Source: Alphaproteobacteria bacterium
GTDB lineage: Bacteria; Pseudomonadota; Alphaproteobacteria; Rs-D84
Direction: 5' to 3'
Length of the DNA stretch: 64,000 nucleotides
Assembly: GCA_017522445.1 (NCBI GenBank)
Contig: JAFWZK010000058.1
Span: 2,281 to 66,280, forward strand
Positions 10,902 through 37,624 of this stretch are shown here, piece by piece. Position 1 is the first letter of the stretch; every line of letters starts with the position of its first letter. The position numbers were made by a program, and so were the translations under genes. Below the pieces are notes generated by a model. That model ran no database searches and was not told the origin of the DNA. It saw only the letters and a list, made by a program, of their open reading frames with translations.

Positions 10902-10933
10902 ACTGGCATTATTACAAATCAGATAATAAAAAA

Positions 10934-11791: not shown

Positions 11792-11807
11792 GTTTAATCC
11801 TTTTGGT

Positions 11808-11830
11808 AAAAAAACACCCGCGTGTGCGGG
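11808..11830 (-). terminator. leader terminator 2 upstream of the MuF-lysozyme gene
   Basis: On the minus strand: CCCGC-ACAC-GCGGG then TGTTTTTT, about 15 nt before the RBS. Confidence 0.6.
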
Positions 11831-11834
11831 CAAT

Positions 11835-11858
11835 AAAAAAAGACGACCCAATGTCGTC
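11835..11858 (-). terminator. leader terminator 1 upstream of the MuF-lysozyme gene
   Basis: On the minus strand: GACGAC-ATTGG-GTCGTC then TTTTTTT, a few nt after the predicted start site. Confidence 0.6.
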
Positions 11859-16635: not shown

Positions 16636-17658
16636 ATGTCAGTACGGACAAAGCGCCTGATTAAAAAAATTATCAGTTATTCAGGTATTTTCTTTTTCAT
16701 CGTCGCCGCAGGTATGCTGTGGTGGCAGTTACGAGATTACAGCTTGTCGGATATCGCACATGCAATACTGGATATACCGTTTTTGAATCTGGCGATGGCA
16801 TGTGTGGCATGCCTGTTGGGATATTTGGCACTGTCGTTATACGACTATTTGGCGTTGAACTATGTCGGCGGACGGGTGTCATGGTGGAAATGGATGCTGG
16901 CCGGGATGCTGGGGTTTGCAATCAGCAATAACGCAGGACACGCAGTCGTCAGTGGTGGTGCAATTCGATACAGATTATATACACGGTGGCGTATCCGGGG
17001 TGGCGATATTTTGAAAATGCTGACAATTTCAGGTTTTACATATTTCCTGGGGGCGTCCGCAATCGTGGTTATCAGCTATTTCTTGGTACCACATCAGCTG
17101 TTCGAAGGGTCTGTGGGGGCCAGCGTGGGAATAAATGCACTGTTTATATTCTGTTTGGCGGCACTGTTGGCATACTTTGCATCGACAATTATATTTTATG
17201 GCAAAAGTATTAAAATTGGTGAAATAAAATTCCAAATCCCATCAACAAAAATGGCATTTACACAAACAATCCTGGGAATTACAGACAGTGTACTGGCAGG
17301 GCTGGTGTTGTATTGCTGTCTGGTGCCATTTGTGCAGATTCCGTTCGTTGTGTTTATCGGACTGTTCGCAATCGCACAATCAACCGGTGTGTTCAGCCAG
17401 GTACCAGGTGGTATCGGCGTGTTCGAAAGTGTGTTCTTAATCGCCCTGCCCGATACCGTGGACAAGGCAAATATTTTCGGGGCACTGTTGGCATATCGGA
17501 TAATTTACTATGTGTTCCCACTTATCGGAATGGGCGGCCTGTTCGTGGTTTATGAACGATGGTTGCGTTCGCGCATGAAGCGTTGGATTAACGAGGCAAA
17601 AGAAAAAATCCCAGCAAAAATCAAAAGCATAAAATCTGAAATAAAAATCAGAAAATAA
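16636..17658 (+). CDS. UPF0104 / lysylphosphatidylglycerol-synthase-TM-region family membrane protein
   Basis: Polytopic protein with the family-typical PGGIGVFE motif. Start refined to MSVRTKRL behind AAAGGA. Confidence 0.7.
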   Translation: MSVRTKRLIKKIISYSGIFFFIVAAGMLWWQLRDYSLSDIAHAILDIPFLNLAMACVACLLGYLALSLYDYLALNYVGGRVSWWKWMLAGMLGFAISNNAGHAVVSGGAIRYRLYTRWRIRGGDILKMLTISGFTYFLGASAIVVISYFLVPHQLFEGSVGASVGINALFIFCLAALLAYFASTIIFYGKSIKIGEIKFQIPSTKMAFTQTILGITDSVLAGLVLYCCLVPFVQIPFVVFIGLFAIAQSTGVFSQVPGGIGVFESVFLIALPDTVDKANIFGALLAYRIIYYVFPLIGMGGLFVVYERWLRSRMKRWINEAKEKIPAKIKSIKSEIKIRK

Positions 17659-19695: not shown

Positions 19696-19767
19696 ATACT
19701 TGACTGAATATGAATTTACTTTTATCATACCCCTGATAGTAAGTATAATTTAAGGATTTAAATAAAT

Positions 19768-20874
19768 ATGCCAAAAATTTCAGTGATTGTACCATGTTAT
19801 AATGTAGCGCCTTATGTTGGGGCGTGCCTGGATTCCATCTTGTCACAATCTTTGCGTGATATTGAAATAATTTGCGTGAATGACAAATCATCGGACAACA
19901 CATTAGATGTATTGACAGAATATGCACAAAAAGATAGTCGCATAAAGATTATTAATCAGCCAACAAATATGGGGGTGGCAGTTGCACGCAACACAGCCAT
20001 GGATATGGCAACGGGCGACTTTATTTCATTCATGGATGCGGATGACATGTTGCCTGATGATGATGTTCTGGCGGATATGTATAATGCAGCGATAAAACAT
20101 GACGTGAAAATCTGTGGTGGGTCTGTTATCATGTGGAACCCAAACACAGATACCGAAGAAACTCATAATTTAACGGTCAGCAAGTTCAACGAAAATACAA
20201 TCATGCACTATGCAGAATGGCCAAATGATTATGGTTTCTGGCGGTTTATTTATGATAGACAATGGCTGATTGAAAACAAAATTTATTTCCCAAAATATAT
20301 TCGCCAGGAAGACCCAGTGTTCTTTGTTCGTGCAATGTGTCTGGCGGGTAAATTCTATGCGTTAAAACGTCCAACATACAAATATCGCATATCATATAAA
20401 CCCATAAACTGGACCAATCAAACAATCAAGGATGTTTTTTGTGGTCTGCGTGATTGTCTGAATATTGCACGCGGATATAAGATGCACGATTTATATCTAA
20501 ACATAGCAGAACACACAAACCACTTTATTGCAGGCATTCGCGCCATTGACAGAAAAACAGCAATCCGTGAAATATGCGATGTAATTGAAATGCTGGCGGA
20601 TTATGCGCCGAATGATTTTGTGCCGGATAAGTTCTTTTTAGATATTGTAAAGTTCCACAGATATCGTGTGTATGATAAGTATGCACATGAAATGATTGCC
20701 AGCAAGCGTATCTATCTGTTTAATCTGATACCAATTTGTCGTATTAAAACCACCAGATTATTTACGTATGTGCAACTGTTAGACCTTGTGCCATTGTTAC
20801 GTATCCGTCGTGACAGTCGTGCGACACGATATTATTTATTCAACCTGATTCCATTACTAAAAATCAAGGGGTAA
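19768..20874 (+). CDS. family 2 glycosyltransferase with a repeated C-terminal peptide motif
   Basis: MPKISVIVPCYNVAPYV...VNDKSSDNT GT2 N-terminus. The C-terminus carries YLFNLIPICRIK / LLDLVPLLRIR / YLFNLIPLLKIK repeats. Confidence 0.85.
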   Translation: MPKISVIVPCYNVAPYVGACLDSILSQSLRDIEIICVNDKSSDNTLDVLTEYAQKDSRIKIINQPTNMGVAVARNTAMDMATGDFISFMDADDMLPDDDVLADMYNAAIKHDVKICGGSVIMWNPNTDTEETHNLTVSKFNENTIMHYAEWPNDYGFWRFIYDRQWLIENKIYFPKYIRQEDPVFFVRAMCLAGKFYALKRPTYKYRISYKPINWTNQTIKDVFCGLRDCLNIARGYKMHDLYLNIAEHTNHFIAGIRAIDRKTAIREICDVIEMLADYAPNDFVPDKFFLDIVKFHRYRVYDKYAHEMIASKRIYLFNLIPICRIKTTRLFTYVQLLDLVPLLRIRRDSRATRYYLFNLIPLLKIKG

Positions 20875-23935: not shown

Positions 23936-23966
23936 TAAAAAACCTGGGGTGACGCCCCAGGTTTTT
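23936..23966. terminator. bidirectional terminator between the radical SAM gene and the phage-like cluster
   Basis: A-run, CCTGGGG-TGACG-CCCCAGG, then T-run, between convergent genes. Confidence 0.75.
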
Positions 23967-24456
23967 ATTCGGCGGACATGCCATATGCAACCCACATACC
24001 AGACATGTCCATCACCCAAGTATGCCATGTGTCGGCAATCTGGGTTCTGTGTCCAGAAAAACCAGTGGTTGTTATGTCGTATATGTTGATTGTAACTGCA
24101 CATATAGTTGCTGAGTCGCTAGACGATATGCTGACTGTTGGCGGTACCGCAAATGCTACGGGAAAATTTACACTGCGTCCTGATAATCGTCCACCCTGTT
24201 CCACCCAACCACTGCGATATTTGCGATACCATGTATAGTTGTTTTCAGATGTCGGCATTTGCCAGGCAATCACATAATCTGCCCCAGACATATCGGTAAT
24301 CGCATCTGCACGCGCCATTGGTGTGCCACCAGGTGTCGTGCCGTCGTGTACGCGAAGTGTGTTGTTCGTGGTGTCAACCGTTATTTCACCAACGGCACCT
24401 GTAAAGTTTTCGTGTTCGGCGGCCGTTCCACGCCGAAATTGTATTTGTCGTGACAT
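23965..24456 (-). CDS. tail fibre protein
   Basis: N-terminus IQFRRGTAAEHENFTGAVGEITVDTTNNTLRVHDGTTPGG is the widespread fibre N-terminal (Mtd_N-type) pattern. The C-terminus YTWYRKYRSGWVEQGG...VNFPVAF is a common fibre-tip pattern. Confidence 0.75.
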   Translation of the reverse strand: MSRQIQFRRGTAAEHENFTGAVGEITVDTTNNTLRVHDGTTPGGTPMARADAITDMSGADYVIAWQMPTSENNYTWYRKYRSGWVEQGGRLSGRSVNFPVAFAVPPTVSISSSDSATICAVTINIYDITTTGFSGHRTQIADTWHTWVMDMSGMWVAYGMSAE

Positions 24457-24484: not shown

Positions 24485-24721
24485 TTATTTGATAACTGCA
24501 CCCTTAATCAGGGTCAGGTCTTCTTTGATATCGTCAATCTTGATTTGTATCTGGCCGATACCTGTTTCCAATATCGTTGTCCGATTTTCCAGCGATGTTA
24601 TGCGGGTGTCAAAACTTTCGTGTTCGGCAACAGATAAATCTTGGCGGGCCGCCCAATAGACCAGCCCACCAATGAAAACAATCAAAAACCAACTGTTACG
24701 AAGAAAATCTAGGATGTTCAT
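24485..24721 (-). CDS. small membrane-anchored coiled-coil protein (phage-type)
   Basis: N-terminal TM helix WFLIVFIGGLVYWAA followed by a heptad-like region. 4-nt overlap with the upstream gene. Confidence 0.5.
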   Translation of the reverse strand: MNILDFLRNSWFLIVFIGGLVYWAARQDLSVAEHESFDTRITSLENRTTILETGIGQIQIKIDDIKEDLTLIKGAVIK

Positions 24722-24921
24722 GACTTGTCCCCCCTGCCCCGTGAAATCAGTGATTCTATCTGACGAACCAGGGCACGTTGGGATTCAAGCCAGCGCAACT
24801 CGTTATCTGTGGCGTTCGGCCCCAGGGTGCGAGAAATAGTTATTTTCCGCAGGTAATCCAATACCTGCCCACCCGATGGCGTGCCAAAACAACGGGCAAA
24901 ACTTTGTTCAATTTCTGTCAC
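24718..24921 (-). CDS. small conserved portal-adjacent phage protein (Bbp19-like pattern)
   Basis: FGTPSGGQVLDYLRKITISRTLGPNATDNELRWLESQRALV resembles, from memory, the small proteins encoded next to portals of BPP-1-like podoviruses. Confidence 0.45.
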   Translation of the reverse strand: MTEIEQSFARCFGTPSGGQVLDYLRKITISRTLGPNATDNELRWLESQRALVRQIESLISRGRGDKS

Positions 24922-26159
24922 AGCGCATCACCCCCCAGTACACTTTCAATTGCTGTCATCTGGGCAATCGGGGCAATGTATTTTAATTCTGCATCGCCAT
25001 TTAGCTGGATTGGTGCTATCAAACCGCGGCGTGCCAATATCTGTAATCCACGGTCGCATAATGGACGAATAAACTCGTGCAATAAACGGCCATAGGTCGC
25101 ACCCAATATTCGCATCATGTCTGCATTGCGGGCCATGATTTCAGTGGCGGTCATTTCTTTTTCAGACAGCAATCCCAATCGGTCCGCCAACATGGCATGA
25201 CGAATGCGTTCACGTAAATCTTTCAGTATTAACTGGGATACGTCAAAGTTGGCAGCACTGTTCAATGGGGTCAAACCTGTTGAACCCACCGCCTTGGGGA
25301 TAATCGCCCCAGGGGTCAGGTTGATATTGTTCAGGTTAATCACACCATCATCGTCTGCCTGCCAGATGCCGGTAACCGCAATAGTTGCATTTTTTAAAAC
25401 CAGTTCAACAACCTTGTTCGCGGTTTTTATGTCCGGTAATGCACGCAGTACAGGTCCACGACCGTATAACTCGCCAGATGCCAATGACCAACGAAAGATT
25501 ATGTATGGATTCGTTTCAAATGTGCCACGGGACACAATGTTGTTTTCCAGTTCCCCACCAACATCCAACCAGGCCGTGAATTCAGTACCAACCAAGCTTT
25601 GAACCAAATTTAATGGGGCGTTTGGATTCTGGGTTATCATGTCACGTATATTTGATGGTGGCGTCCAGGTGGGATAACGTTCCAGAACCTCGTACAGGGG
25701 GATGGATGTGGTATGAAAAACAGCATCCGGTAAAATCGCAATATCTGTCATAGGCACCGCTGTAAATGTAAAGGCAGAGGACGAACCAAGGGGGGCCTCG
25801 GCCATAAATAGGCATGCGGTGCCATTTATCACCAAATCCATATAGCACTGGTGTATCGTGGTGTAAAAATTGGAATCGTTCAAATTAGCACGCAAAACAG
25901 CGGTCGCAATGTCTGCGTTCTGGGACATTTCACTTTCGCCCACCAGTTGCAGCCATAATGATTCTGGCGGTGTCAGCAATGTATAAATAGATGCCGCCAG
26001 ATTGTCCGCCGCATCTGATGCCGTGGCATCGTACAGTGTGGCTGTGTCTGAATCTGTGGCAGGTATCGTATAACGACGGGCATCGTCCCAGCGTGTCAAC
26101 CAGGGGGAACGCATGTCCAATGCACGTTTATACAGGTTTTGCAGGTTGTTTGGTTGCAT
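24918..26159 (-). CDS. portal (head-to-tail connector) protein, T7 gp8-type
   Basis: 413 aa. The N-terminal pattern LYKRALDMRSPWLTRWDDARRYTIP...AADNLAASIYTLLTPP matches the podovirus connector family as I recall it. It lies directly downstream of the terminase. Confidence 0.7.
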   Translation of the reverse strand: MQPNNLQNLYKRALDMRSPWLTRWDDARRYTIPATDSDTATLYDATASDAADNLAASIYTLLTPPESLWLQLVGESEMSQNADIATAVLRANLNDSNFYTTIHQCYMDLVINGTACLFMAEAPLGSSSAFTFTAVPMTDIAILPDAVFHTTSIPLYEVLERYPTWTPPSNIRDMITQNPNAPLNLVQSLVGTEFTAWLDVGGELENNIVSRGTFETNPYIIFRWSLASGELYGRGPVLRALPDIKTANKVVELVLKNATIAVTGIWQADDDGVINLNNINLTPGAIIPKAVGSTGLTPLNSAANFDVSQLILKDLRERIRHAMLADRLGLLSEKEMTATEIMARNADMMRILGATYGRLLHEFIRPLCDRGLQILARRGLIAPIQLNGDAELKYIAPIAQMTAIESVLGGDAL

Positions 26160-26189: not shown

Positions 26190-27059
26190 TTAAACCGTAA
26201 AGTTTGTGTTTGCAGAATATGTTGTAATGGCACGACCACTGGGACGTACAATAAATGGCGTGTGCGCTATTGCACCGGCAACCGCGTCCAGACCATCATC
26301 GTGCATGCCAGATACACCGGCCGGTGACCAACCCAACATTTCTGATAAAAATGGGGTCTGACGAATGCGCATGTGGGCGTGCAGGCGACCTGTTGATAAA
26401 ACGGGCTCGATTGCGGACAGGATGCGGTCCGATTTGCTGCGACTGTTCTGAATCTTTGTTATGCGTACAGTAAAACCACGAGTGGCAGCACAATTACGCA
26501 TAATCTCGGGCAAGCCGCCACCAATGCCGTTGGTTTCCAAAACCAGATTATGCAAATTGCGACGCGACATAAAATCTAATACCTGGTCACACTGGTGCGA
26601 CAAAGGATATTGGATGCCGTCCGATACTGTTAAATACAAAATGTCATCAATAAAAATATGACGACTGTTATCATCACGATACAACAATACACAGGCACTG
26701 TTGTCACGATTGCGGCGACCAGATGATGGGTCCCAATACAGCACATGACCCGTTATCGTAAAATCCCCAATACTTGCAGTTCGCGGATTAAACTCGTCAG
26801 AATAAAATATAAGCGAACCAGGATCCAGACGTGTTCGTTCGGGCGGTATAAATTCCAATAGCATCTGAGATGAAAAATGACGATGACCAACCAAAGTACG
26901 CATCTGTTCTATGCGGGCAGCAGAAAATAATTCAGGCCAGGCAGAGGTACCGTCCGCATTAACTAGCGGAATTTTCAGGACTTTGTACCCAGATAAAAAA
27001 GGCGTTGAAAAAGCATTTTTTTCATATACCATGGGCATAGAAGAAAAGGATTGTGACAT
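26190..27059 (-). CDS. terminase large subunit, C-terminal (nuclease) fragment
   Basis: WPELF..IEQMR...FSSQMLLEF, then WDPSSG...LETNGIGGG...MHDDGLDA (RNase-H-like nuclease signature). It lacks any Walker motif. A possible own start at ATG 27059 is preceded by AGGGG. Confidence 0.7.
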   Translation of the reverse strand: MSQSFSSMPMVYEKNAFSTPFLSGYKVLKIPLVNADGTSAWPELFSAARIEQMRTLVGHRHFSSQMLLEFIPPERTRLDPGSLIFYSDEFNPRTASIGDFTITGHVLYWDPSSGRRNRDNSACVLLYRDDNSRHIFIDDILYLTVSDGIQYPLSHQCDQVLDFMSRRNLHNLVLETNGIGGGLPEIMRNCAATRGFTVRITKIQNSRSKSDRILSAIEPVLSTGRLHAHMRIRQTPFLSEMLGWSPAGVSGMHDDGLDAVAGAIAHTPFIVRPSGRAITTYSANTNFTV

Positions 27060-28623
27060 GGATTTTACCCCTAAGACATTACCAACCAATTTAGAAGCAG
27101 AACAGGCCGTGTTGGCCGCTGTGTTGATGAAAAACCGCGCACTGGAACAGGTGGGTGAATTCCTGAATGCAAAACACTTTTCACACCCCGCACACCAAGA
27201 AATCTATCGGTTGGCGGAAAAACAATTCGCAGCAGGTATACCGTTTGATATTATTACCGCAAAAAACTATCTGGACCAACAGGGGGTTCTGGAATCAGTG
27301 GGCGGTGTTGAATACCTTAGCCAGCTGGCCAGTGCAGGCACAACAGTTGTAAATGTTGAACAATATGGACGAATAGTTTATGAAAATGCACTGCGACGCG
27401 ATTTAATCGCACTGGGCCAGGAAATCACAGACAAGGCATTCATAGAAGACCTGGATAATCCCGTGGCACGACAAATCGAAGCCGCAGAACAAAAACTGTT
27501 CGATATGGCAACCACAGGTGCATCAGAACGTGAAATTACATCTATTTCAAGTGCACTGGATGCCGCCATGGCCGAAGCAGAAATCGCATACAAGGCAGAT
27601 GGACAATTGTCTGGTTTAACAACTGGACTGAATGCACTGGATACATCAATCAGCGGTCTGCATCATTCTGACCTGATTATTATCGCAGGACGACCCGCAA
27701 TGGGAAAAACAACACTGGCAATGAATATCGCATTTAATGCAGCAAATGCAATCGCACATGGACGGGCCAATAAAAACTATACAGGGGCGGTCGTATTTTT
27801 CAGTCTGGAAATGTCCGCGTCCCAGCTGGCGGCACGTGTGCTGTCTTCGCAATCGCGGGTCAAGGCATCGTCTATGCGTGAAGGTACGCTGACCGATGAA
27901 GATTTCCTGAAAATGTCCCAGTATGCCGCAGCCATTTCCAAGGTGCCACTGTTCATAGATGATACCGCAGGTATGTCTGTGCCAATGATGCGTACACGGG
28001 TGCGGCGACTGGCCAGAAAACATGGTGGTATCGCATTGATTGTTATTGACTATTTACAATTGATGACATCACCCGGCGGTAAACACAATGATAATCGTGT
28101 CCAGGAAATTTCCGAGATTACACGTGGCCTTAAAATGCTGGCCAAAGAAATGGATGTGCCAGTTATCGCACTGTCTCAGTTATCGCGTAGCGTGGAATCA
28201 CGTGATGATAAACGACCAATGTTGTCAGATTTGCGTGAATCAGGTTCAATCGAACAGGACGCCGATATCGTTATGTTTACATATCGCGAAGAATACTATT
28301 TGCAAAACCGCGATCCAAATGAACGAATTTCAAATAATACCAACGATAAAATGCATGATTCTTGGCAAAACAGAATGGATCGTGCACGCGGCAAGGCCGA
28401 TATAATCATCGGTAAAAACCGCCATGGAAGACCCGAAACCGTCAGAACCGCTTTCTTTGGCGATTTCAGCTTGTTCGATAACCTGGAAGAGTTCGAGGCA
28501 CGCGGTGAAAACGAATACGCTCAGCCCGCCCCCACAATCTCGGCAGCCAGTCTGATGAACGAAGACGATGTAATGCCAACACCAATCGATGATGATGCAA
28601 TTCCAGATGATATGCCGTTGTAA
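27058..28623 (+). CDS. dnaB: replicative DNA helicase DnaB with an acidic C-terminal extension
   Basis: LPTNLEAEQAVLAAVLM N-terminal domain, GRPAMGKT Walker A and a RecA-like core ending DIIIGKNRHGRP. Start refined to MDFTPK (ATG 27058) behind AAAGGA. Confidence 0.92.
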   Translation: MDFTPKTLPTNLEAEQAVLAAVLMKNRALEQVGEFLNAKHFSHPAHQEIYRLAEKQFAAGIPFDIITAKNYLDQQGVLESVGGVEYLSQLASAGTTVVNVEQYGRIVYENALRRDLIALGQEITDKAFIEDLDNPVARQIEAAEQKLFDMATTGASEREITSISSALDAAMAEAEIAYKADGQLSGLTTGLNALDTSISGLHHSDLIIIAGRPAMGKTTLAMNIAFNAANAIAHGRANKNYTGAVVFFSLEMSASQLAARVLSSQSRVKASSMREGTLTDEDFLKMSQYAAAISKVPLFIDDTAGMSVPMMRTRVRRLARKHGGIALIVIDYLQLMTSPGGKHNDNRVQEISEITRGLKMLAKEMDVPVIALSQLSRSVESRDDKRPMLSDLRESGSIEQDADIVMFTYREEYYLQNRDPNERISNNTNDKMHDSWQNRMDRARGKADIIIGKNRHGRPETVRTAFFGDFSLFDNLEEFEARGENEYAQPAPTISAASLMNEDDVMPTPIDDDAIPDDMPL

Positions 28624-28695
28624 TTATTTTACTTGCACCATAATTAAAAATTGACTATTATTTTGTCAAGAAACAATAGTTTTAGGAGTTTTATT

Positions 28696-29703
28696 ATGGC
28701 CCAAGAAGAAATTATATTTCCAAATAATATACGCAATATTCGCCTGGCCAAGGGAATGAAAATGACCGACCTGGCCAGACGGGCAGATTTATCGTTGTCT
28801 GCGGTTTCTAAAATCGAAAAGGGTGTTCGCAGACTGAACCAAAAACAATTACTGCGTATCTGCAATATCTTGGGATGCAAGTTGTCCGATGTGTTTATCA
28901 AAGAATCTGATGCCGTCGCCGACCAATGGCAAAGCGAAATTAAACGCAGATTAAGCGACAATGAAAACAGCGGATTAAAAGTCTTTGGCAGCGGAATGCG
29001 TAAAATTCGCCAGCAGTCCGGAAAAACTATTGCACAGGCCGCAAAAGACGCAGGTATGACACTGTCTGTGTACCATAAAATCGAGGTTGGACAACGCGAA
29101 ATCTATAAAAATGAAATCGAACCGTTGGCGGCTTCGTTCGCAATGAAAACAGAAGAACTGTTCGATAAAATCGCAAACTTGTACAAATCCGGTGAATTGA
29201 ATAAACATATCAGCAAGGTCAAGGAACGTGTTAAATCTGTTCTGGTGCCGGGAAATCCGTTGTCGGGTATCGATATGCAGGGCAGTTTATATGGCGCAAA
29301 ACTGTATGACAGTGCACGTAAAAAACTGGTGCCAGTGTTCGGAACCCCGTCCGGTAAAGCAATCGCATTTAATAAATCTGACTCTGCAATGATTATCGCA
29401 CCATCCGAACTGGAAGGACGAAAAGGTATCTATGCCATTATGCCCAATACCAAAAGAATGGGGGGGATGATACCAGAAAAATCATACATCTTTGCAGATG
29501 CACTGACACAGGCAAAACCAGGTGATTTGGCCGTGTGTCTGGATGTGGACTTTGATACGCTGGGGACCGATGAAACCGTTAATGCACAAGTTGCAATCAT
29601 TAAACAGGATTCCAGGGGTAAAGTTCTGGGACACATCCTGGGGCCTGATGAAAAAATTACACCAAAAACAATGCACAAAGTTATTATGGTTGTCATGGAA
29701 TAA
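28696..29703 (+). CDS. transcriptional regulator with two XRE-type HTH domains and a degenerate S24/LexA-like C-terminal domain
   Basis: IRNIRLAKGMKMTDLARRADLSLSAVSKIEKG and MRKIRQQSGKTIAQAAKDAGMTLSVYHKIEVG. The C-terminus has a LexA-like fold pattern, with MGGM where GxSM is expected. Start refined to MAQEEI behind AGGAG. Confidence 0.75.
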   Translation: MAQEEIIFPNNIRNIRLAKGMKMTDLARRADLSLSAVSKIEKGVRRLNQKQLLRICNILGCKLSDVFIKESDAVADQWQSEIKRRLSDNENSGLKVFGSGMRKIRQQSGKTIAQAAKDAGMTLSVYHKIEVGQREIYKNEIEPLAASFAMKTEELFDKIANLYKSGELNKHISKVKERVKSVLVPGNPLSGIDMQGSLYGAKLYDSARKKLVPVFGTPSGKAIAFNKSDSAMIIAPSELEGRKGIYAIMPNTKRMGGMIPEKSYIFADALTQAKPGDLAVCLDVDFDTLGTDETVNAQVAIIKQDSRGKVLGHILGPDEKITPKTMHKVIMVVME

Positions 29704-29733
29704 TTCAAACAATATACCCAGAGAGAGAATACA

Positions 29734-30375
29734 ATGAATACAAAATCCAGTGCAACAGCATTAAAACTGTTAAATCTGTACCGCCAAGAACACGTTATAA
29801 TCGGCGGTTGGGCCGCCGTCAATCAGGTCTTTGTCGCACAGGCAAATGATGATGTTATCCGGGAACTGAAAAATATGCCAACAGGTAAATCACTGGTTCA
29901 ACACATAGAAAACCTGAGAAGCGGCAAAACACCAATGGATTCAATCGAACGTGATTTAATGCCATATGGCGGAATGATGCTGGATTCAACTGTGCCTTCA
30001 ATCAAACTGGATGATAATCAGTGGCAGGAACTGGAATATGGTATCGATAACTTTACACCAGATCAGGCAGGATTGGAAACCTTTACCGCACTGGGGGTGG
30101 TGCAAAAGTTCGGAACAGAATGGATTACCGCAATCGCAGATGCAATAAACCAAAAACCATACCTGCGAGATAAATGGAATATCATAACCCAGACATATAA
30201 TGCATATCGACTGTGGAATACAGCAAATGAAATTATCGCAACCCCAATTTCAGAACGCGTCCGCGGTCAGGTCCAGGCCGATATGCCAGAATACGAAACA
30301 TATCTGCCAATGTTCGGTGATGCGGGTATGCAATTGCTGGAAAAATTAAGAACCATTATCAGCAGTTTAAAATAG
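29734..30375 (+). CDS. hypothetical protein (213 aa)
   Basis: Intact ORF, last gene of the plus-strand insert. Its end overlaps the stop of the terminase ATPase fragment by 9 nt. No motif recognised. Confidence 0.5.
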   Translation: MNTKSSATALKLLNLYRQEHVIIGGWAAVNQVFVAQANDDVIRELKNMPTGKSLVQHIENLRSGKTPMDSIERDLMPYGGMMLDSTVPSIKLDDNQWQELEYGIDNFTPDQAGLETFTALGVVQKFGTEWITAIADAINQKPYLRDKWNIITQTYNAYRLWNTANEIIATPISERVRGQVQADMPEYETYLPMFGDAGMQLLEKLRTIISSLK

Positions 30376-30987
30376 TTCCCCCTGCCCCGTATCTGTGCGA
30401 TATATCGTATCGTGTGTGTGCGGTGTTCCTATGTATACCATGGCACCGGTGGGCGATAATATAAAATCCAGTTCACGTAATCGTTCACGCAGGTCTGCAC
30501 GCTTTTGCAGGGTGTTTGATGTGTTTGGAACCTCGACGTCATCACATATAATTAAATCTGCACGCATGCCAGTGATGTTGCCGTGTATGCCCTGGCATAT
30601 GACAGACGGCTCGCGGATGCCAATGGGGCGATTGACCGTTATTCGACCCATCGACCATTCTTTTTTATTCGATGGAACCAAATTGCTGCACCAGGGATGA
30701 TTTTCCAATATGTGACGAATGTGCGATACCATACGGGTCGACAACCCTGATTCCGCAGATAATATTAATATACGTGTTTGGGGATATAAATACAAAACAC
30801 AGGCCGCAAAAATCCCAACAACCGTGGATTTGCCCGAATGACGAAATGCCATCAGCAATCCACGATGCGGTGAATCACACAATACACCATACAGAAATTC
30901 CAATATCTGACGATGATGACGTGGCGTTTTTAACCCCAATACTCGATTCCATTCGTCCAAAAAATCATAAAATACCGTAATCATCAC
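30367..30987 (-). CDS. terminase large subunit, N-terminal (ATPase) fragment
   Basis: Walker A-like FRHSGKST, Walker B DLIICDD and the coupling motif IGTP. The stop comes 21 codons after IGTP. Confidence 0.75.
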   Translation of the reverse strand: MMITVFYDFLDEWNRVLGLKTPRHHRQILEFLYGVLCDSPHRGLLMAFRHSGKSTVVGIFAACVLYLYPQTRILILSAESGLSTRMVSHIRHILENHPWCSNLVPSNKKEWSMGRITVNRPIGIREPSVICQGIHGNITGMRADLIICDDVEVPNTSNTLQKRADLRERLRELDFILSPTGAMVYIGTPHTHDTIYRTDTGQGELF

Positions 30988-31516
30988 GATTTTCGTTCGG
31001 TGCAGGTTCTGTTATGACACCATAGTCATTTATCAATTTCGGCAACGCATTTTCCAATACACCCAACAGATTTCTGTACAACCCCATTACCGACCCGCCC
31101 GATAATTTGTCATTTATTACAGAATGGGTATAGTCAATTAACGATTTAATGTTATCATGACGGTTCGCCCATTGCGATAAATCAATGTTGACCGAATGTA
31201 AATCCTGGAATGCAGATAACAAAAAGTTAAAGTCAGAGTTTAAATCTTCGGGATCTATTTGGGCCGTTGGCTGATAGTCAATCGTACGTGATAATGATAT
31301 TTGTCTGAAAATGTCCAGACGTGTGCCTGTTTCCGGGGCAATATCAAAAACAACATTGCCACCAGAAAAATCAGAGTTTGGTATCACAGTAAAATTAGCC
31401 CCGTGATTATCTAAAACCTCGTTTATCGCAACGCAAATGTCCGCGACCTGAAAAAACGGAAAGGAAAATGCAAACTCGGTCGTCGTGCCGTCCGCAATAT
31501 AAGATATTTTGTACAT
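30965..31516 (-). CDS. tail-fibre adaptor protein with a T7 gp17 N-terminal-like domain
   Basis: YIADGTTTEFAFSFPFFQVADICVAIN...IDYQPTAQIDPEDLNSDFNFLLSAFQDL follows the Y..DG....F.IPF...V pattern of podovirus fibre N-termini. Confidence 0.55.
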   Translation of the reverse strand: MYKISYIADGTTTEFAFSFPFFQVADICVAINEVLDNHGANFTVIPNSDFSGGNVVFDIAPETGTRLDIFRQISLSRTIDYQPTAQIDPEDLNSDFNFLLSAFQDLHSVNIDLSQWANRHDNIKSLIDYTHSVINDKLSGGSVMGLYRNLLGVLENALPKLINDYGVITEPAPNENRDDYGIL

Positions 31517-31539: not shown

Positions 31540-31887
31540 CTAGCCAACCAAATCATCAAATCTGGATAAAATTGATCGCAGCAAGTTTGGCTTTTTAGCA
31601 GTACTTTGTTTTAACTTTTTCAAATTATTACGACGTTTTTCTTCGTATGGGGCCGCGGTTTCAGAACGCAAACGTTCCAATACGCGACCGGCGGTCATGC
31701 CTGATGCAGATACACCAGACGAACCATACTTGGCGCGCTGGGCGGCCAAGACTTTTTTCACCAGATTCGTCTTTTCTGTGTTATCTGTCGCCATCTGGGC
31801 AAGAATTTCTTTGCGTTGGCTTTTTGCCTGCTTCTTGGCATCTTTATAGTCCAAGATTTCTGTCACATCTGATACAAGTTGTCCCAT
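31540..31887 (-). CDS. small basic virion-associated-type protein, unknown function
   Basis: 115 aa, Lys/Arg-rich and predicted helical. It sits between tail genes. Confidence 0.4.
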   Translation of the reverse strand: MGQLVSDVTEILDYKDAKKQAKSQRKEILAQMATDNTEKTNLVKKVLAAQRAKYGSSGVSASGMTAGRVLERLRSETAAPYEEKRRNNLKKLKQSTAKKPNLLRSILSRFDDLVG

Positions 31888-31950: not shown

Positions 31951-33666
31951 CTAGATCATGTACCAGCCATGTAAACTGACCGATAAAACAGTCAGCGGAT
32001 ATGATTCTGTACCGTGAATTGTCCATGGCGGGCGTATACAGTCATGTGCTGTACCCAATAAATTCAGCGAAACATCACCACTGAAACCAGGTGAATCCGC
32101 GGCATATATCACATTAGGTAAACTGATGCGTTGATTGTTAATGTGTAATGATTTGGAATCCAATAATCGGGCAACCAGTTTTCTTAACCGTATCCGACGT
32201 GGATTATGCCCCGATGCCCGCAACGGTAAACCAGAGGCAATATATGCAAAACTGAACGTGCCACAATCGTCCTGACAATCTGAATCAAAGTATTCCAGAC
32301 TGATTACCCCTGAACGCTTGACCGCGACGTATGTGCGACCATCTGTAACCGCAACCGATAAAAAATCGCCCGCTGTGCGGTATGTGCACCATGCAGAAAT
32401 ACCAACCGATGAATTCTGGTTTAAAACGGCCATAATACCATCTGAACGAACAATGTACAGTCTGCGTTCAGTCGCGTTATAGCACATGTCAACAGGAACC
32501 TGCATCAGGTGCTTGGCCATAACAGATAAATCATTGGCGTTATAGTTTTCACCTAACTCGTCCAGCCCCAGTTCGCGCAAATCACAACCACTGGCGGAAA
32601 TAAAGATTGTCGAACCTTCGATTTTCTGGGGTGGCAAATATCGCGATGTGTACGAGCCAACTGATGTGTGCTGCTTGATATCAACAGACGATGGGGTCAG
32701 CGGTTTGCTGGATATCGCCCATTCGCCCGCATTCGTCAATATCTGCAAATTTTCACTGCTGACCAGGGTGCAAATCTGTTGACGCTGTTGCGATAATAAT
32801 GATATGAAAATCGCTTCGTCATCCAGGCCTGTGCCACCGTCAAAATTGTTGTGACGCCCAACCTGGGACATCCAAATGCCCGCAGGCCAATCGCGCGAAC
32901 CACCAAATACCAATCTGTCCTGGTGAAATGTGATACTGCGGGGCCATCCACGGCGGGAACCAAAGGCCGCCTCGGACCAAGATGATACCGGGGATGATGG
33001 TAATGAATACGAACCGTTTGTGTGGGCAACAATCTGGGTGGAAGATATATATTCCGCAACCGTCCATTGGCGATCCAATAAATACAGCCGACCATTTACA
33101 TTATCAGGTGTCCAAAAATCACGATTGGTCGTAAATGTCGCATAATTATTGCCAGAACTGTTGGCTGTGACGGTTATCGTAATGTCCGATGCATCATCAA
33201 AGCGAACAAACGGTATGTTCAGCGTCATGTCCGAATCATTGCGGGAAAATGTAAAGTCCGAAATGTAAAATCTGTCCGGATGTTTGACCAGCGTCTGGGG
33301 ACAATGGTCAGGATGAACAAATATCATCGTACCAAAACGCTGGGCATACTGCAGATTGGATAAATCTGCAACTGACCATGGTGTTATCAAATCCTGGACC
33401 AAATCGCCCCCCAGATATATGTCCATGTGAAAATCCGTCAGGGCAAGCAAATATTCCGCACCGTCCGATACCGAAAATGATATCAGGCGTGCTTGCCCAA
33501 CCAAATTGTCAATGTGACGCAACCCATAACGACGCGATAAACCACCACCAGATATAACATTCATATTCTCTAAACGGGACAGACCATTTATATTATCACT
33601 GGTGTAAAATTCTGGGGCAACTTCGCCGTTTGCAAACGAGTTTTGTGTCTTTATAAAATCTGTCAT
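31951..33666 (-). CDS. large tail protein (tail tubular protein B / nozzle-like)
   Basis: 571 aa directly after the tubular-A-like gene. The N-terminus FANGEVAPEFYTSDNINGLSRLENMNVISGGGLSRRYG resembles podovirus tail-tube/stabilisation proteins as I recall them. Confidence 0.5.
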   Translation of the reverse strand: MTDFIKTQNSFANGEVAPEFYTSDNINGLSRLENMNVISGGGLSRRYGLRHIDNLVGQARLISFSVSDGAEYLLALTDFHMDIYLGGDLVQDLITPWSVADLSNLQYAQRFGTMIFVHPDHCPQTLVKHPDRFYISDFTFSRNDSDMTLNIPFVRFDDASDITITVTANSSGNNYATFTTNRDFWTPDNVNGRLYLLDRQWTVAEYISSTQIVAHTNGSYSLPSSPVSSWSEAAFGSRRGWPRSITFHQDRLVFGGSRDWPAGIWMSQVGRHNNFDGGTGLDDEAIFISLLSQQRQQICTLVSSENLQILTNAGEWAISSKPLTPSSVDIKQHTSVGSYTSRYLPPQKIEGSTIFISASGCDLRELGLDELGENYNANDLSVMAKHLMQVPVDMCYNATERRLYIVRSDGIMAVLNQNSSVGISAWCTYRTAGDFLSVAVTDGRTYVAVKRSGVISLEYFDSDCQDDCGTFSFAYIASGLPLRASGHNPRRIRLRKLVARLLDSKSLHINNQRISLPNVIYAADSPGFSGDVSLNLLGTAHDCIRPPWTIHGTESYPLTVLSVSLHGWYMI

Positions 33667-33691: not shown

Positions 33692-34210
33692 TCAAAAACG
33701 GCTGGTGATTAATGAAAAGTCAGTCAAACACGAAGGGGCAGATGTTGTGCTGTCCAGATATTTTGCAGTCTGTAATTCCGTTTCATACAACGCCGCCAAC
33801 ATGCGAAATACCGTTTGATCACCCAACAAGGGAATACAAAATTCCATCGCCAAACGCGTCACCGCCAATGATATAAAATAACTGGGGAACTGTTCCGGTG
33901 ATACACGCCGAAGAACAACAACAGACACACTGTCTGAATCAGATATAATCCGATTGCCTGTAATATCACCGTCCGAACGTAATACACGCAATACATCCGA
34001 TGGAATCAAAAAATCGCCATCTGTATTGCGAACCAAATCCAATTGGGCCGTCGCAAAACGCCATGGATGCAGCGATATCAAAGAATCTGTGATAACATCA
34101 AACAATGTACGTGAAAGTTTGGCGGCCGCACTGTCGTCCGTCAATGACTGGATTGGCTGTTCCCCCAGTTTTAACAGTGCCATAGAACATAAATCTATTT
34201 TGGTTAGCAT
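33692..34210 (-). CDS. tail tubular protein A / head-tail adaptor-like
   Basis: MLTKIDLCSMALLKLGEQPIQSLTDDSAAAKLSRTLFDVITDSLISLHPWRFA matches the widespread podovirus pattern (..AL..LG...I.SL.D.S..A......Y......LL....W.FA). Confidence 0.55.
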   Translation of the reverse strand: MLTKIDLCSMALLKLGEQPIQSLTDDSAAAKLSRTLFDVITDSLISLHPWRFATAQLDLVRNTDGDFLIPSDVLRVLRSDGDITGNRIISDSDSVSVVVLRRVSPEQFPSYFISLAVTRLAMEFCIPLLGDQTVFRMLAALYETELQTAKYLDSTTSAPSCLTDFSLITSRF

Positions 34211-34287
34211 TTTTTGACCCTTTGGTTATGTTATGAATAAAATTGGGCCGAAATTAATCGGCCCGAACATAAGAAAATAAAAAACAT

Positions 34288-34556: not shown

Positions 34557-35384
34557 TTATGCGCTCAAAGAATCTGAACATTTAACGCGAACAATACCTG
34601 TGTCGTCTATTAACACCGCACCCTGAGACATGCTGTTGCTGATAAAGTGGGCAGCACGCTCTCCGTGCCATGAAATGTCAGTCTTGACATCCTGACCACA
34701 GGCATGACCAATGCTGGACGCATGATAGATAAAGCAGTCACGATTTGTACCCGATACGGGCAAACCATTGTGCAGAACCCATGTAATGCCCAACCATTTG
34801 CGGGCAATACCACCATTTAACAACGGGGCAGTATTACCAACATAATCCGCCGAGACAAACTCGTCCAGCGACAACAGCTCGTTCCACTGGTGTACGCCAA
34901 CAACTGCAAAGCGGCGGCCATCATCTGGAACGTCGTTTGTATTTAATACCTCGACTGCAGATAAAATCAATTCTTTGGTCAGCCCTGTTGAATAATCCCC
35001 AACTGTTGCCGTTGCATCATTCATTGCCGAGATAATCAATTCATCTGTTTTACGCCCCAATGCGTATGCACCCGCAGATGCAACAACACGACGTTCGTCT
35101 ATGTTCGTTTTTAATTCATCCAATGCGTCAACCCAATCGCCCGCATAGTAATCCATCAGCATGCATTCAACAGGTTCATGATTTAAATTCATAACAGGTA
35201 CAATGCCATGACGTGATTTTGTGCTGGCTGTGCCACGCCCAACCTTTTGAAACGTGGTAGATGCACCAATTACACCAGATTTACTGCGAACAGTTGAACG
35301 CAGTTTCGTGCCCATTTGCTGGTACGCCAAATGAACATCCGCTTCGAATTGTTTCACAAATACATTATCTATGGAAACAGACAT
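34557..35384 (-). CDS. major capsid protein
   Basis: 275 aa downstream of the scaffold-like gene. VFVKQFEADVHLAYQQMGTKLRSTV...GRKTDELIISAM resembles podovirus capsid proteins as I recall them. Confidence 0.6.
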   Translation of the reverse strand: MSVSIDNVFVKQFEADVHLAYQQMGTKLRSTVRSKSGVIGASTTFQKVGRGTASTKSRHGIVPVMNLNHEPVECMLMDYYAGDWVDALDELKTNIDERRVVASAGAYALGRKTDELIISAMNDATATVGDYSTGLTKELILSAVEVLNTNDVPDDGRRFAVVGVHQWNELLSLDEFVSADYVGNTAPLLNGGIARKWLGITWVLHNGLPVSGTNRDCFIYHASSIGHACGQDVKTDISWHGERAAHFISNSMSQGAVLIDDTGIVRVKCSDSLSA

Positions 35385-35592: not shown

Positions 35593-35615
35593 AAAAAAAC
35601 CCCGCAATCGCGGGG
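35593..35615 (-). terminator. intrinsic terminator after the Lys/Ala-repeat gene
   Basis: On the minus strand: CCCCGC-GATT-GCGGGG followed by TTTTTTT. Confidence 0.7.
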
Positions 35616-35623
35616 AATATTTA

Positions 35624-36100
35624 TTATTTTTTCTTGCACACTTTCTTGGCAACAGGTTTTTTTGCAACCGGTTTTTTAATTGCGGCTTTTTTTACAACTG
35701 GTTTTTTCACCGCAACTTTTTTTGCAGGTGCAGCTTTCTTTGCGACTGGTTTTTTCACCGCAACTTTTTTCGCAGGTGCAGCTTTCTTTGCAACTGGTTT
35801 TTTCACCGCAACTTTTTTCGCAGGTGCAACTTTCTTTGCAACTGGTTTTTTTACCGCAACTTTTTTCGCAGGTGCAACTTTCTTTGCAACTGGTTTTTTC
35901 ACCGCAACTTTTTTCGCAGGTGCAGCTTTCTTTGCGACTGGTTTTTTCACCGCAACTTTTTTCGCAGGTGCAGCTTTCTTTGCAGCCGGTTTTTTCACTG
36001 CAACTTTTTTCGCAGGTGCAGCTTTCTTTGCGACTGGTTTTTTTTCTTCTGCTTTTTTGACCGCTTCTTTTTTGCGTATTCTTAAAAATGGAAATGCCAT
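35624..36100 (-). CDS. Lys/Ala/Pro-repeat, histone H1-like basic protein
   Basis: 158 aa made almost entirely of KKPVAKKAAPAKKVAV units. Own RBS (AAGGAGAG) and terminator. The three plus-strand ORFs over the same DNA are repeat artefacts. Confidence 0.7.
   Translation of the reverse strand: MAFPFLRIRKKEAVKKAEEKKPVAKKAAPAKKVAVKKPAAKKAAPAKKVAVKKPVAKKAAPAKKVAVKKPVAKKVAPAKKVAVKKPVAKKVAPAKKVAVKKPVAKKAAPAKKVAVKKPVAKKAAPAKKVAVKKPVVKKAAIKKPVAKKPVAKKVCKKK
35697..36032. repeat. tandem repeat, 7 x 48 bp, in frame
   Basis: Unit ACTGGTTTTTTCACCGCAACTTTTTTCGCAGGTGCAGCTTTCTTTGCA starts at 35697, 35745, 35793, 35841, 35889, 35937 and 35985, with only point differences. Degenerate partial copies lie on both sides. 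Confidence 0.95.
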
Positions 36101-36211: not shown

Positions 36212-36868
36212 TCATGAATATAATTTTTTAAATCCATTTTCTATTTTACGTATGTATTCAACATCGTTATCACGCCAGTATTTTGGGTCACGCATCATAC
36301 GACGTAAATCAGAATCTGTCAGATTGTCGGATGCAGAGTTTTCCGTATGAACATTTGGTTCCATTGATTGCATCATTTTGTAAATGCTTTGTATTCCCTG
36401 GGGTGTAGAACATAACTCGGTAAATGCATCGTGTGGTAAAAATCGTTCACCAAATGTGTTTATTTCACGTAATGCATGTTGCATTTTTTCATTTCCACCA
36501 AAAAAATTCTGCAGCTGAGTTATTGCATTGCTTTCATCCTGGACAGAAAATATTTCTGATATCAATGGTGATAAAAATTCGTTCGCAATGTTATAAATTT
36601 CAGAAACCTGATTACAAGTTAACCCTAGGTCAAAAAATTTCTGACGCAACATTTCATCATCGTATAGTTCATTTGTTGGATACTCGGACGCAGATGATGG
36701 GACGCCAATTGCACGATTAAACTTTTGACGTGTTTCATCGTCTGCATCGGCCGATGGAATTGATACCATACCACCAATCTTTTTTTCTAATTCTTTGTAC
36801 GAACGTACCAACGCGTCTGTATTCAACGTACCATCATTGTTTAAAAATTTTTCTGGGATATTATCCAT
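36212..36868 (-). CDS. scaffolding protein-like
   Basis: MDNIPEKFLNNDGTLNTDALVRSYKELEKKIGG resembles the N-termini of phage scaffolding/capsid-assembly proteins. It is helical and acidic and lies upstream of the capsid gene. Start refined to ATG 36868. Confidence 0.5.
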   Translation of the reverse strand: MDNIPEKFLNNDGTLNTDALVRSYKELEKKIGGMVSIPSADADDETRQKFNRAIGVPSSASEYPTNELYDDEMLRQKFFDLGLTCNQVSEIYNIANEFLSPLISEIFSVQDESNAITQLQNFFGGNEKMQHALREINTFGERFLPHDAFTELCSTPQGIQSIYKMMQSMEPNVHTENSASDNLTDSDLRRMMRDPKYWRDNDVEYIRKIENGFKKLYS

Positions 36869-37074: not shown

Positions 37075-37485
37075 CTAAAGATAAAACAGTACATTGTCTA
37101 TGTCCGCAATGTATCCACGTGCAATCGCCCAGTCGGGTAATATATCGGCGTGATGAAATGCGGTCGCACCATTACAACAATCAGGTAACATACCAGATAA
37201 CATTCGCTTTGCCGTGCGAACACACATCTGAAAATGACGCGAATCCGCAGGAACAGTTAATCGTTCGTGATGCGGAGAACTTTCGTCCAGTACAGAAAAA
37301 ATTTTCATGTCACGAATTATTTCATGCATTGAACGGTTCGTCTTGATGGACAGGTTCCTTATCATCGTGGTCATTGCTTCGACCAACCGCAGCGACGTGC
37401 CACCTGTTTGTGCATAAACAACACGTGCAATCTGATACGCCAATGATGCAGATGCATCCGGATTCGGTATAATAGTTAACTGCAT
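37075..37485 (-). CDS. cell wall hydrolase (SleB/Hydrolase_2-like)
   Basis: LAYQIARVVYAQTGG...VEAMTTMIRN...NGATAFHHADILPDWA...FY follows the SleB-family pattern. Confidence 0.6.
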   Translation of the reverse strand: MQLTIIPNPDASASLAYQIARVVYAQTGGTSLRLVEAMTTMIRNLSIKTNRSMHEIIRDMKIFSVLDESSPHHERLTVPADSRHFQMCVRTAKRMLSGMLPDCCNGATAFHHADILPDWAIARGYIADIDNVLFYL

Positions 37486-37512: not shown

Positions 37513-37537
37513 AAAAAACCACGTGATGGACACGTGG
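37513..37537 (-). terminator. leader terminator 2 upstream of the phage-like cluster
   Basis: On the minus strand: CCACGTG-TCCAT-CACGTGG then TTTTTTC. Confidence 0.6.
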
Positions 37538-37541
37538 AAAT

Positions 37542-37568
37542 AAAAAAACGCCACAACCTTTGTTGTGG
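37542..37568 (-). terminator. leader terminator 1 upstream of the phage-like cluster
   Basis: On the minus strand: CCACAAC-AAAG-GTTGTGG then CGTTTTTTT. Confidence 0.6.
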
Positions 37569-37595: not shown

Positions 37596-37624
37596 AGTAT
37601 ACCATATTTTCAGCACAAAGTCAA
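37596..37624 (-). promoter_or_regulatory. sigma70-type promoter of the phage-like cluster
   Basis: On the minus strand: TTGACT, a 17-nt spacer, then TATACT. Confidence 0.55.

Follow-up and report, generated by a model that had tools for sequence, protein, structure and literature searches.

A large terminase encoded by two genes on either side of a dnaB operon in a phage-derived cluster of Candidatus Enterousia

How could a DNA-packaging motor be made from a terminase whose gene lies in two pieces, with a replicative helicase gene between them? The question is raised by a 64,000-nt stretch of contig JAFWZK010000058.1 (GenBank assembly GCA_017522445.1; hereafter the window), whose source is Candidatus Enterousia (Alphaproteobacteria, order Rs-D84), gut bacteria with tiny genomes. 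The order is uncultured, and its genomes measure ~0.75–1.0 Mb (PMC12306168). On the minus strand, from ~37.6 to 24.0 kb, the window carries a compact phage structural gene set, a 13.5-kb cluster of T7/BPP-1-like head, tail and packaging genes that makes up ~1.5% of a ~0.9-Mb genome and is flanked by housekeeping genes (lipB, priA, miaA, gap, RNase E/G, RNase PH, recG and glycosyltransferases). Within this cluster the large terminase subunit (TerL) is encoded by two minus-strand genes, terL-N and terL-C, and the ~3.3 kb between them are occupied by a plus-strand operon of dnaB, a helix-turn-helix (HTH) regulator gene and unk213, a gene for a 213-aa protein (coordinates in Table 1). A preliminary description of the window had proposed three options: a simple inactivating insertion, a functional two-piece terminase, or an intervening element whose excision would rebuild terL. 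We consider it probable that the cluster is a vertically inherited, domesticated T7/BPP-1-like module resembling gene transfer agents (GTAs), that its two-gene terminase is functional, and that the dnaB operon came to lie between terminase genes that were already independent.

The two terminase genes and the position of the break

The preliminary description assigned only ATPase motifs to terL-N, and the profile matches of its product are indeed restricted to the N-terminal part of TerL. TerL-N matches positions 273–459 of the 760 of phrog_38 and positions 2–196 of the 500 of the NCBIfam model termin_lrg_T7 (NF033889; 228 bits, cut-off 150), covers only 60% of Pfam Terminase_6N, and aligns with residues 46–211 of the PhiV-1 T7-like terminase chain (PDB 8DGC); its best phage matches are Autographiviridae. 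The remainder, including the RNase-H-like nuclease, was placed in terL-C, and this assignment also holds: TerL-C matches phrog_38 at positions 468–704 (E = 2e-30), contiguous with the TerL-N match, and Pfam Terminase-T7_RNaseH-like (PF22530) at 27.4 bits (cut-off 27), while a PDB sequence search with TerL-C alone returned no match. Of the features that define a T7-type terminase, the N-terminal ATPase motifs of the additional strand, conserved glutamate (ASCE) class, namely Walker A, Walker B with the catalytic Glu, and the C (coupling) motif, are thus found in TerL-N, where they are invariant in 82 orthologues, and the C-terminal RNase-H-like nuclease with its conserved acidic residues is found in TerL-C; the two domains do not share one chain of ~480–590 aa but lie in two open reading frames (ORFs) of 205 and 289 aa. 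The former figure refers to the ATG start, which is the form of the window's TerL-N present in databases, the 206-aa form with a GTG start giving no exact match.

To locate the break, we aligned the two halves with six of the nearest unsplit relatives recovered by an exhaustive profile-free search (45–53% identity, about 450–510 aa); in every intact relative found here, TerL is a single chain. The break falls in a length-variable, unconserved loop between '...GTPHxxxxIY' and 'FLxG[FY]xxLxIPxxxxxGxSxWPE[RK]F'. At the junction every conserved residue is accounted for, and the two proteins (205 + 289 aa) add up to the length of an intact TerL, which agrees with the earlier impression of two intact halves and a nearly seamless junction, although the terL-N stop lies 17 residues past IGTP rather than the 21 codons first counted. 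TerL-N ends in this variable loop after GTPHxxxxIY, and its C-terminal tails vary freely among species (IYRTD, IYQTGD, IYRTAIGN and others), as a loop would.

The structural position of the loop was read from an AlphaFold2 (AF2) model of a relative that is unbroken across the junction (P0132; predicted local distance difference test score, pLDDT, 82). In this model the Walker-B strand (161–167) and the C-motif strand (195–205) are followed by the loop, then by a further strand (233–237) and helices (254–273), all at pLDDT ~87–94, and by the nuclease strands from ~297. Its structural matches include T7-type TerL as well as crystal structures of the ATPase domain alone, from P74-26 and T4 TerL; a profile of the intact relatives aligned with solved T7-type TerL over the N domain and a short nuclease stretch only, leaving the junction unmapped there. 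In the standard ASCE layout, the strand that follows the C-motif strand belongs to the core sheet. On the model, the break therefore lies inside the ATPase domain, past the C-motif strand, and not at the boundary between ATPase and nuclease, with ~95 predicted ATPase-domain residues in TerL-C. The original division into an 'ATPase' and a 'nuclease' half has to be revised accordingly, since the ATPase fold itself appears to be cut and TerL-C to hold a strand and the lid helices. Because the fold would be divided between the two proteins, they would have to assemble for a working motor: TerL-N would supply strands 1–4 of the ASCE core with Walker A, Walker B and C motif, TerL-C would supply the next strand, the lid helices and the RNase-H-like nuclease, and the two would join non-covalently into one packaging motor.

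We then asked how widely this arrangement is kept, scanning one genome per species of the GTDB for TerL-N relatives. At least 570 encode one, and the best 80 (76–95% identity) were examined; these are gut metagenome-assembled genomes (MAGs), many of them named Candidatus Enterousia, and one is a circular chromosome of 958,618 bp. Database homologues of TerL-N number 905, the closest 120 of which are all 190–221 aa long, 77–100% identical and derived from MAGs labelled 'Alphaproteobacteria bacterium'. Split, insert and gene order are identical in 80/80 species-level loci whose contig reaches far enough, the shared order being lipB, hydrolase, scaffold, capsid, tubeA, tubeB, p115, fibre-N and terL-N, then unk213, HTH and dnaB on the opposite strand, then terL-C, portal, Bbp19 and p78. 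The same split with the same insert thus recurs far beyond chance.

Both halves of terL are under purifying selection. Median ratios of non-synonymous to synonymous divergence (dN/dS) from codon alignments of orthologues, in which synonymous sites are saturated for most pairs (proportion of synonymous differences, pS, ~0.72), are 0.10 for TerL-N and 0.17 for TerL-C; the corresponding values are 0.065 for the capsid, 0.07 for the portal, 0.06 for DnaB, 0.075 for the HTH regulator and 0.18 for lipB, and the range over all cluster genes is 0.06–0.29. Walker A, Walker B and C motif are invariant, YWDP, ETNG and DDGLDA of the nuclease vary little or not at all, and 85 of 203 alignment columns of TerL-N do not vary. 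The ORFs are uninterrupted in 82/83 loci (TerL-N) and 73/75 loci (TerL-C), the exceptions being one contig end, one gapped locus (L018) and one high-scoring segment pair that overruns the natural stop. Across relatives, identity to the window rises and falls together in cluster genes and in the host genes lipB and dnaB (Spearman rho 0.4–0.84), and this correlated divergence argues for vertical inheritance. Selection, invariant motifs and a junction from which nothing is missing together lend strong support to the second of the three options, a functional two-piece terminase.

Further split lineages, reached through homologues of a 210-aa representative (P0151), have the same break in other layouts; a metagenome scan with this protein returned distant relatives only (27–29%). 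In three loci (L174, L176 and, on a 1.47-Mb contig, L175), the two terL genes directly neighbour each other on one strand but in different frames, with stop and start coupled (GGAG...ATGGGTGA in one, TAAAAATG in another) and each ORF having its own Shine-Dalgarno sequence (SD) and ATG. In a large sister clade at ~50% identity (L177–L179), where the same structural cluster is present and, in L179, again lies near lipB, all TerL-N termini read '...IYKV'. Here terL-C lies downstream of the portal gene and is translationally coupled to it, and the space between terL-N and portal is taken by ftsZ or by two other genes. The ftsZ gene is co-oriented with the structural genes (11659–13242 in L177, 14018–15772 in L178), and mipZ (MipZ/ParA) closes the cluster (16763–17578 and 19709–20521, respectively). 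In every layout TerL-C starts just ahead of the FLxG[FY]xxLKIP strand. As the halves remain separate even when adjacent, or are set apart by ftsZ and portal, they behave as independent genes. Since the same loop is split elsewhere without an insert, the dnaB operon probably landed between genes that were already separate. The initial view of a terL 'split by' its insert is therefore borne out only in that the dnaB operon does lie between the halves; the split itself is probably older.

In L174 and L175, the terL pair stands at 9.5–13 kb with three or four small ORFs amid housekeeping genes, and capsid and portal genes are absent within 10 kb; the element may be multi-locus or partly lost there.

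The intervening dnaB operon and competing explanations

The insert had been described as holding a complete bacterial-type DnaB, and curated models agree. The protein passes the cut-offs of the cellular equivalogs (NF006606, 612.6 bits, cut-off 540; TIGR00665, 507, cut-off 385) and fails the phage_DnaB model TIGR03600 (400.8, cut-off 498.65), with a best phage match of 49% identity, all of which identifies it as the cell's own replicative helicase. Of the second gene, described as a double-HTH regulator with an S24-like domain, the two HTH domains stand, whereas the S24 domain finds no support either from Pfam (no S24 at E ≤ 0.01) or from aligning 78 orthologues by hhalign with LexA and an S24 protein (probability ~1%). 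The regulator is about as conserved as DnaB. A perfect palindrome upstream of its gene (Table 1), with conservation of ≥97% over 77 loci, could serve as an autoregulatory operator that overlaps the promoter of the HTH gene; it is the sole exact copy in the window, the structural promoter included, and so provides no link to that promoter. The third gene, unk213, remains without a family, as first noted, in Pfam, PHROG and NCBIfam alike. Its listed homologues are all close (67–100% identity) and hypothetical, and its AF2 model is all-helical (pLDDT 78) with no PDB fold match at E < 1.

Both borders of the insert are tightly packed. The stops of terL-N and unk213 overlap by 9 nt in the window, as had been reported, and by 4 nt in 46/79 loci. 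At the other border, the ATG of dnaB and an in-frame ATG of terL-C overlap in CATG, as also seen at the outset, and they do so in all but two of 79 loci. The spacer from CATG to a conserved 'VYEKN' measures 7, 22 or 25 nt, always in frame. The internal Met that gene callers choose for terL-C is replaced by Ile in 34 loci, so that only the start in CATG applies generally. Over terL-C codons 11–22, counted from the ATG at 27059 ('VYEKNAFSTPFL'), synonymous variation collapses to running means of 0.04–0.35, compared with a gene mean of 0.73, and the nucleotides of this block are nearly invariant. A promoter-like site reading towards dnaB coincides with it (Table 1), so that a predicted promoter of the essential dnaB appears to be embedded in terL-C. 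Lineages with a 22- or 25-nt spacer have an AAGGA Shine-Dalgarno sequence within it; in those with a 7-nt spacer, which lack this 15–18-nt SD-bearing segment, the ATG lies 7 nt past the -10 element, which would make dnaB leaderless.

We propose that the cell's dnaB-HTH-unk213 operon was placed, in reverse orientation, between two pre-existing terL genes, and that genome streamlining would then have compacted the junctions into the CATG start overlap, the dnaB promoter in the first terL-C codons and the 3' overlap of terL-N with unk213. A single origin of the terL split is plausible, and comparison of the layouts favours the order of split first and insertion later.

Several points weigh against this proposal. 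The N domains, compared by neighbour joining (199 columns, 60 bootstraps), give a star-like tree in which the split lineages are not resolved as one clade; the loop may have been split several times independently, or the Enterousia split may be a later one. TerL-C matches the NCBIfam T7-terminase model over positions 332–500 at 93 bits, below the cut-off of 150, and none of the small ORFs matches a family of the small terminase subunit (TerS). In the dnaB-proximal antisense region, a conserved promoter for terL-C and portal was not found, the first 70 dnaB codons showing only mild, non-contiguous synonymous dips. Finally, that the halves associate, that particles form and package DNA, that events took this order and that the promoters are active are all inferred.

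A possible extension of this proposal, which we regard as unlikely, treats the interleaving as a regulatory device. The structural transcript from the 37.6-kb promoter would cross dnaB-HTH-unk213 in antisense to reach terL-C and portal; on commitment to particle production, this antiterminated late transcript would, through collision and antisense RNA, silence both the regulator and the cell's only replicative helicase, and dnaB transcription would conversely insulate the packaging genes, keeping terL-C and portal off during growth. Overlapping start codons fit such a switch, since they require the promoter of terL-C or of dnaB to sit inside the other gene or further upstream, and the dnaB codons just mentioned hold no conserved terL-C promoter signature. 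The minus-strand hairpins across the insert are only weak, a terminator could not fit where the stops overlap (46/79 loci), processive antitermination is suggested by the cluster's conserved leader with its promoter and two terminators, and the sister clades, too, interleave cell-cycle genes (ftsZ, mipZ) with the cluster. However, the switch is argued from sequence rather than from expression data, the co-oriented ftsZ of the sister clade means that the antisense logic does not generalise, and a weak, poorly conserved internal promoter could serve terL-C. Moreover, gene order is frozen across the whole cluster, so the conserved insert is not specific evidence for a switch.

It is quite improbable that the cluster is kept for a role other than packaging, as a particle that delivers proteins or signals or as a structural or lytic device, with the halves acting as a stand-alone ATPase and a stand-alone nuclease. 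The missing TerS, the separability of the halves in the genome and the ~2-fold faster non-synonymous change of TerL-C (median dN 0.31, compared with 0.15 for TerL-N) would suit such a role, but all catalytic motifs of ATPase and nuclease are invariant, and portal, capsid and scaffold are under equally strong constraint. In addition, judging by the model of the intact relative, TerL-N alone would lack the strand and lid that complete the ATPase fold, and in the sister clade TerL-C is translationally coupled to the portal, its expected docking partner.

That the halves are rejoined, whether by DNA excision of the skin/nifD type, by splicing of a group I or II intron or by a split intein, is hardly credible, even though the junction is seamless at the protein level and terL pieces rejoined by introns have precedents (PMC12880540). 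As already stated in the preliminary description, the insert holds no recombinase, consisting of DnaB, the HTH protein and the all-helical protein only, and the larger ORFs scanned across the 64-kb window include neither a recombinase nor a second dnaB or terL. Direct repeats are absent from the borders, where only chance-level repeats occur, and Rfam gives no match to a group I or II intron or to any other family, either at the gathering threshold or at E ≤ 1. Together the halves are as long as an intact TerL, which leaves no room for an intein, and each has its own conserved stop or start codon. Where they are adjacent in other lineages, they stay two ORFs in different frames with their own SD and ATG; where they enclose the portal gene, excision would remove it, which rules out rejoining by that route. 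We therefore rejected the excisable element, for want of a recombinase in the insert or among the scanned ORFs and of border repeats that would restore one ORF, as well as the intron- or intein-split gene, for want of an Rfam match and of an intein-sized extension. An inactivating insertion, in which the dnaB region destroyed the terL of a decaying prophage, is just as implausible, since against the 3.3-kb distance and the opposite strand of the insert stand low dN/dS at saturated synonymous divergence (dS), invariant catalytic motifs, ORFs intact in ~80 species, a complete junction and the retention of the whole cluster in genomes of ≤1 Mb, which together exclude it.

The structural cluster and its leader

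The remaining genes of the cluster are listed in Table 1, the scaffold gene with the gene-caller coordinates of a locus (L001) that is 100% identical to the window outside repeat copy number. Its promoter and double-terminator leader is conserved in 63/63 Enterousia loci; the TTGACN...TANNNT motif occurs in all 63 and in the sister-clade loci L177–L179, and the leader is recognisable in that clade. Both terminators are conserved across species, their stems differing on both sides in several loci, and the leader may serve attenuation, antitermination or the production of a short RNA.

Between scaffold and capsid genes, a 48-nt tandem repeat (35681–36043; 7.6 copies, 94% matches) encodes PAKKVAVKKPVAKKAA... 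within a Lys/Ala/Pro-rich ORF that matches Pfam HC2 (histone-H1-like, 58 bits). The corresponding spacer of L001 is 289 nt, or ~6 repeat units, shorter, so strains differ in copy number. At 34245–34264 (minus strand), after a gene pair of capsid and a 77-aa protein, and at 35600–35615 (both strands), upstream of the capsid gene, there are strong GC-rich hairpin terminators; they would suit a capsid gene expressed at a level different from that of its operon neighbours, as is the case in T7-like phages. In some relatives (L005/L007, at about 16.5–20.3 kb), extra genes are inserted ahead of the Mtd_N/H-lectin fibre gene, and neither a reverse transcriptase nor the template of a diversity-generating retroelement was seen near this gene. 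A phage-type GH108 lysozyme gene with PG_binding_3 (PHROG endolysin) and an unknown 177-aa ORF (10404–11851, minus strand), next to tRNA genes and 12 kb from the cluster, may represent a lysis module that became detached from the element.

In IMG/VR, intact relatives show the order portal-Bbp19-scaffold-capsid-tubeA-tubeB-fibre-TerL-hydrolase, which is rearranged in Enterousia. No integrase and no replication genes of the cluster's own were found in it or among the larger window ORFs scanned, and a set of head, tail, packaging and lysis genes lacking replication and integration genes points to a GTA-like element. Two properties by which GTAs are recognised are present: the cluster is phage-derived and lacks replication, integration and lysogeny modules of its own, and it is inherited vertically under purifying selection, at the same locus by lipB in 80 species. 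The capsid is constrained about as tightly as DnaB (0.065 compared with 0.06), which argues for an important cellular function, with gene transfer the probable one, in organisms believed to rely on partners.

Table 1 Features of the cluster and of the intervening operon, in order along the minus strand (window coordinates)
Feature	Coordinates	Strand	Basis and remarks
Strong predicted sigma-70-type promoter TTGACT-17-TGgTATACT	37596–37624	minus	10/12 match, extended -10; head of structural operon
Two tandem intrinsic-terminator hairpins	37519–37568	minus	Between promoter and first structural gene
Cell-wall hydrolase	37075–37485	minus	First cluster gene; Pfam Hydrolase_2 (weak), PHROG endolysin; syntenic in all loci
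T7-type scaffolding (capsid assembly) protein	36212–36868	minus	Pfam Phage_T7_Capsid; coordinates from L001
Lys/Ala/Pro-rich ORF	35624–36100	minus	Between scaffold and capsid; HC2-like; gene status uncertain
Major capsid protein	34557–35384	minus	Pfam Phage_capsid_2, E = 4e-72; 81–98% identity across species
Tail tubular protein A	33692–34210	minus	Pfam Tube (weak), synteny
Tail tubular protein B	31951–33666	minus	phrog_376 tail protein, E = 2e-82
p115, conserved 115-aa protein	31540–31887	minus	No family match; in all loci; dN/dS 0.18
T7 tail-fibre N-terminal-domain-like protein	30965–31516	minus	Pfam Phage_T7_tail (below cut-off), PHROG tail families
terL-N	30987/30984–30367	minus	205–206 aa; Walker A FRHSGKST, Walker B LIICDDVE, C motif IGTPH
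unk213	29734–30375	plus	213 aa; last gene of plus-strand operon
HTH regulator	28696–29703	plus	Pfam HTH_3 x2 (XRE-type); C-terminal domain without assignment
Palindrome TTGAC-N9-GTCAA (TTGACTATTATTTTGTCAA)	28651–28669		dnaB-HTH intergenic region, upstream of HTH gene
dnaB	27058–28623	plus	521 aa; cellular alphaproteobacterial-type replicative helicase
dnaB promoter-like site TTGAAA-16-TACCAT	27005–27032	plus	Antisense in terL-C codons 10–19 from the ATG at 27059; coincides with nearly invariant block
terL-C	27059–26190	minus	289 aa; last ATPase strand, lid helices and RNase-H-like nuclease (strand and helices by model)
Portal	24918–26159	minus	Pfam Head-tail_con, E = 5e-82; dN/dS as in text
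Bbp19-like small protein	24718–24921	minus	Pfam Phage_Bbp19 on identical L001 gene
p78, conserved 78-aa protein	24485–24721	minus	dN/dS 0.11
Receptor-binding fibre (Mtd_N and H-type lectin)	23965–24456	minus	Most variable cluster gene: 51–79% identity or undetected in relatives

Comparison with known systems

To our knowledge, all characterised phage terminases have a TerL that is one chain or is rejoined by splicing, and our literature search found no paper describing a split terL without an intron. The T7-type TerL proteins (T7 gp19; PhiV-1, 8DGC; NF033889) have the same ATPase and RNase-H-like nuclease motifs as the Enterousia halves; their known members are single chains of ~480–590 aa, whereas in Enterousia one chain ends past the C-motif strand and the other takes up with the next core strand. 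A break inside the ATPase core that selection has long kept, across hundreds of species, would mark a permissive split site, which could be useful for engineering split terminases. It would also imply an obligate heterodimeric packaging motor and so bear on how ATPase, lid and nuclease communicate. The closest solved structure, PDB 8DGC, shows the PhiV-1 terminase bound by the defence sensor Avs3, which recognises TerL; that a two-piece TerL might escape Avs3-like sensors is a speculative thought.

Terminase and other genes in pieces are known from several systems. Herpesvirus UL15 has two exons, with UL16 and UL17 antisense in its intron. As in the present case, the coding parts of a terminase are several kilobases apart with unrelated opposite-strand genes between them; in UL15, however, mRNA splicing yields one protein and the break lies at another position, while the Enterousia halves show no splicing signal and have a start and a stop each. 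The sigK skin and nifD elements likewise interrupt a gene with a multi-gene insert, but they carry a recombinase and flanking repeats, and their excision restores one ORF; none of these was found in Enterousia. In Jug phages, terL also comes as several ORF fragments, which are co-oriented, co-transcribed and made whole by inteins or by the splicing of group I introns (PMC12880540). The Enterousia locus differs in having neither intron nor intein and in that a host operon of opposite orientation separates its terL pieces.

The leader of the structural operon is reminiscent of the PR'-tR'/Q region of lambda, where a near-consensus promoter is likewise followed by intrinsic terminators within ~100 nt, ahead of the lysis and morphogenesis genes; no Q-like or GafZ-like antitermination factor was identified in Enterousia. 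The terminator leader also recalls the antitermination control of CcGTA (PMC11150451).

The closest parallels to the element as a whole are the GTAs (RcGTA, BaGTA, CcGTA, FpGTA). Like these, it is a chromosomal, phage-derived cluster of head, tail and packaging genes without replication and integration genes, inherited vertically under purifying selection, with a candidate lysis gene at a separate locus (here the GH108 lysozyme, 10.9–11.9 kb). Our literature search found no paper tying Enterousia, Rs-D84 or RF32 to a phage-like cluster, so that this would be a T7/BPP-1-like element undescribed in the searchable literature and fixed in an uncultured minimal-genome gut lineage. FpGTA of Faecalibacterium is called the first podovirus-like GTA-like element in its 2026 paper (PMC12946183). 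The Enterousia module is T7/BPP-1-like, whereas the structural modules of RcGTA and CcGTA are of the HK97-type siphovirus kind. It further differs from the GTAs in its two-gene TerL and in its host genome of ≤1 Mb. With its overlapping starts, the predicted promoter of an essential gene inside a phage-derived one, and embedded dnaB or ftsZ, the element looks like a domesticated virus that has become inseparable from core cell-cycle genes, an entanglement that suggests a link between particle production and replication or division. If this reading is correct, minimal-genome gut Alphaproteobacteria would harbour an order-wide podovirus-type GTA that is set apart from the known agents by the essential host genes interleaved with it, dnaB in the lineage studied here and ftsZ and mipZ in its sister clade.

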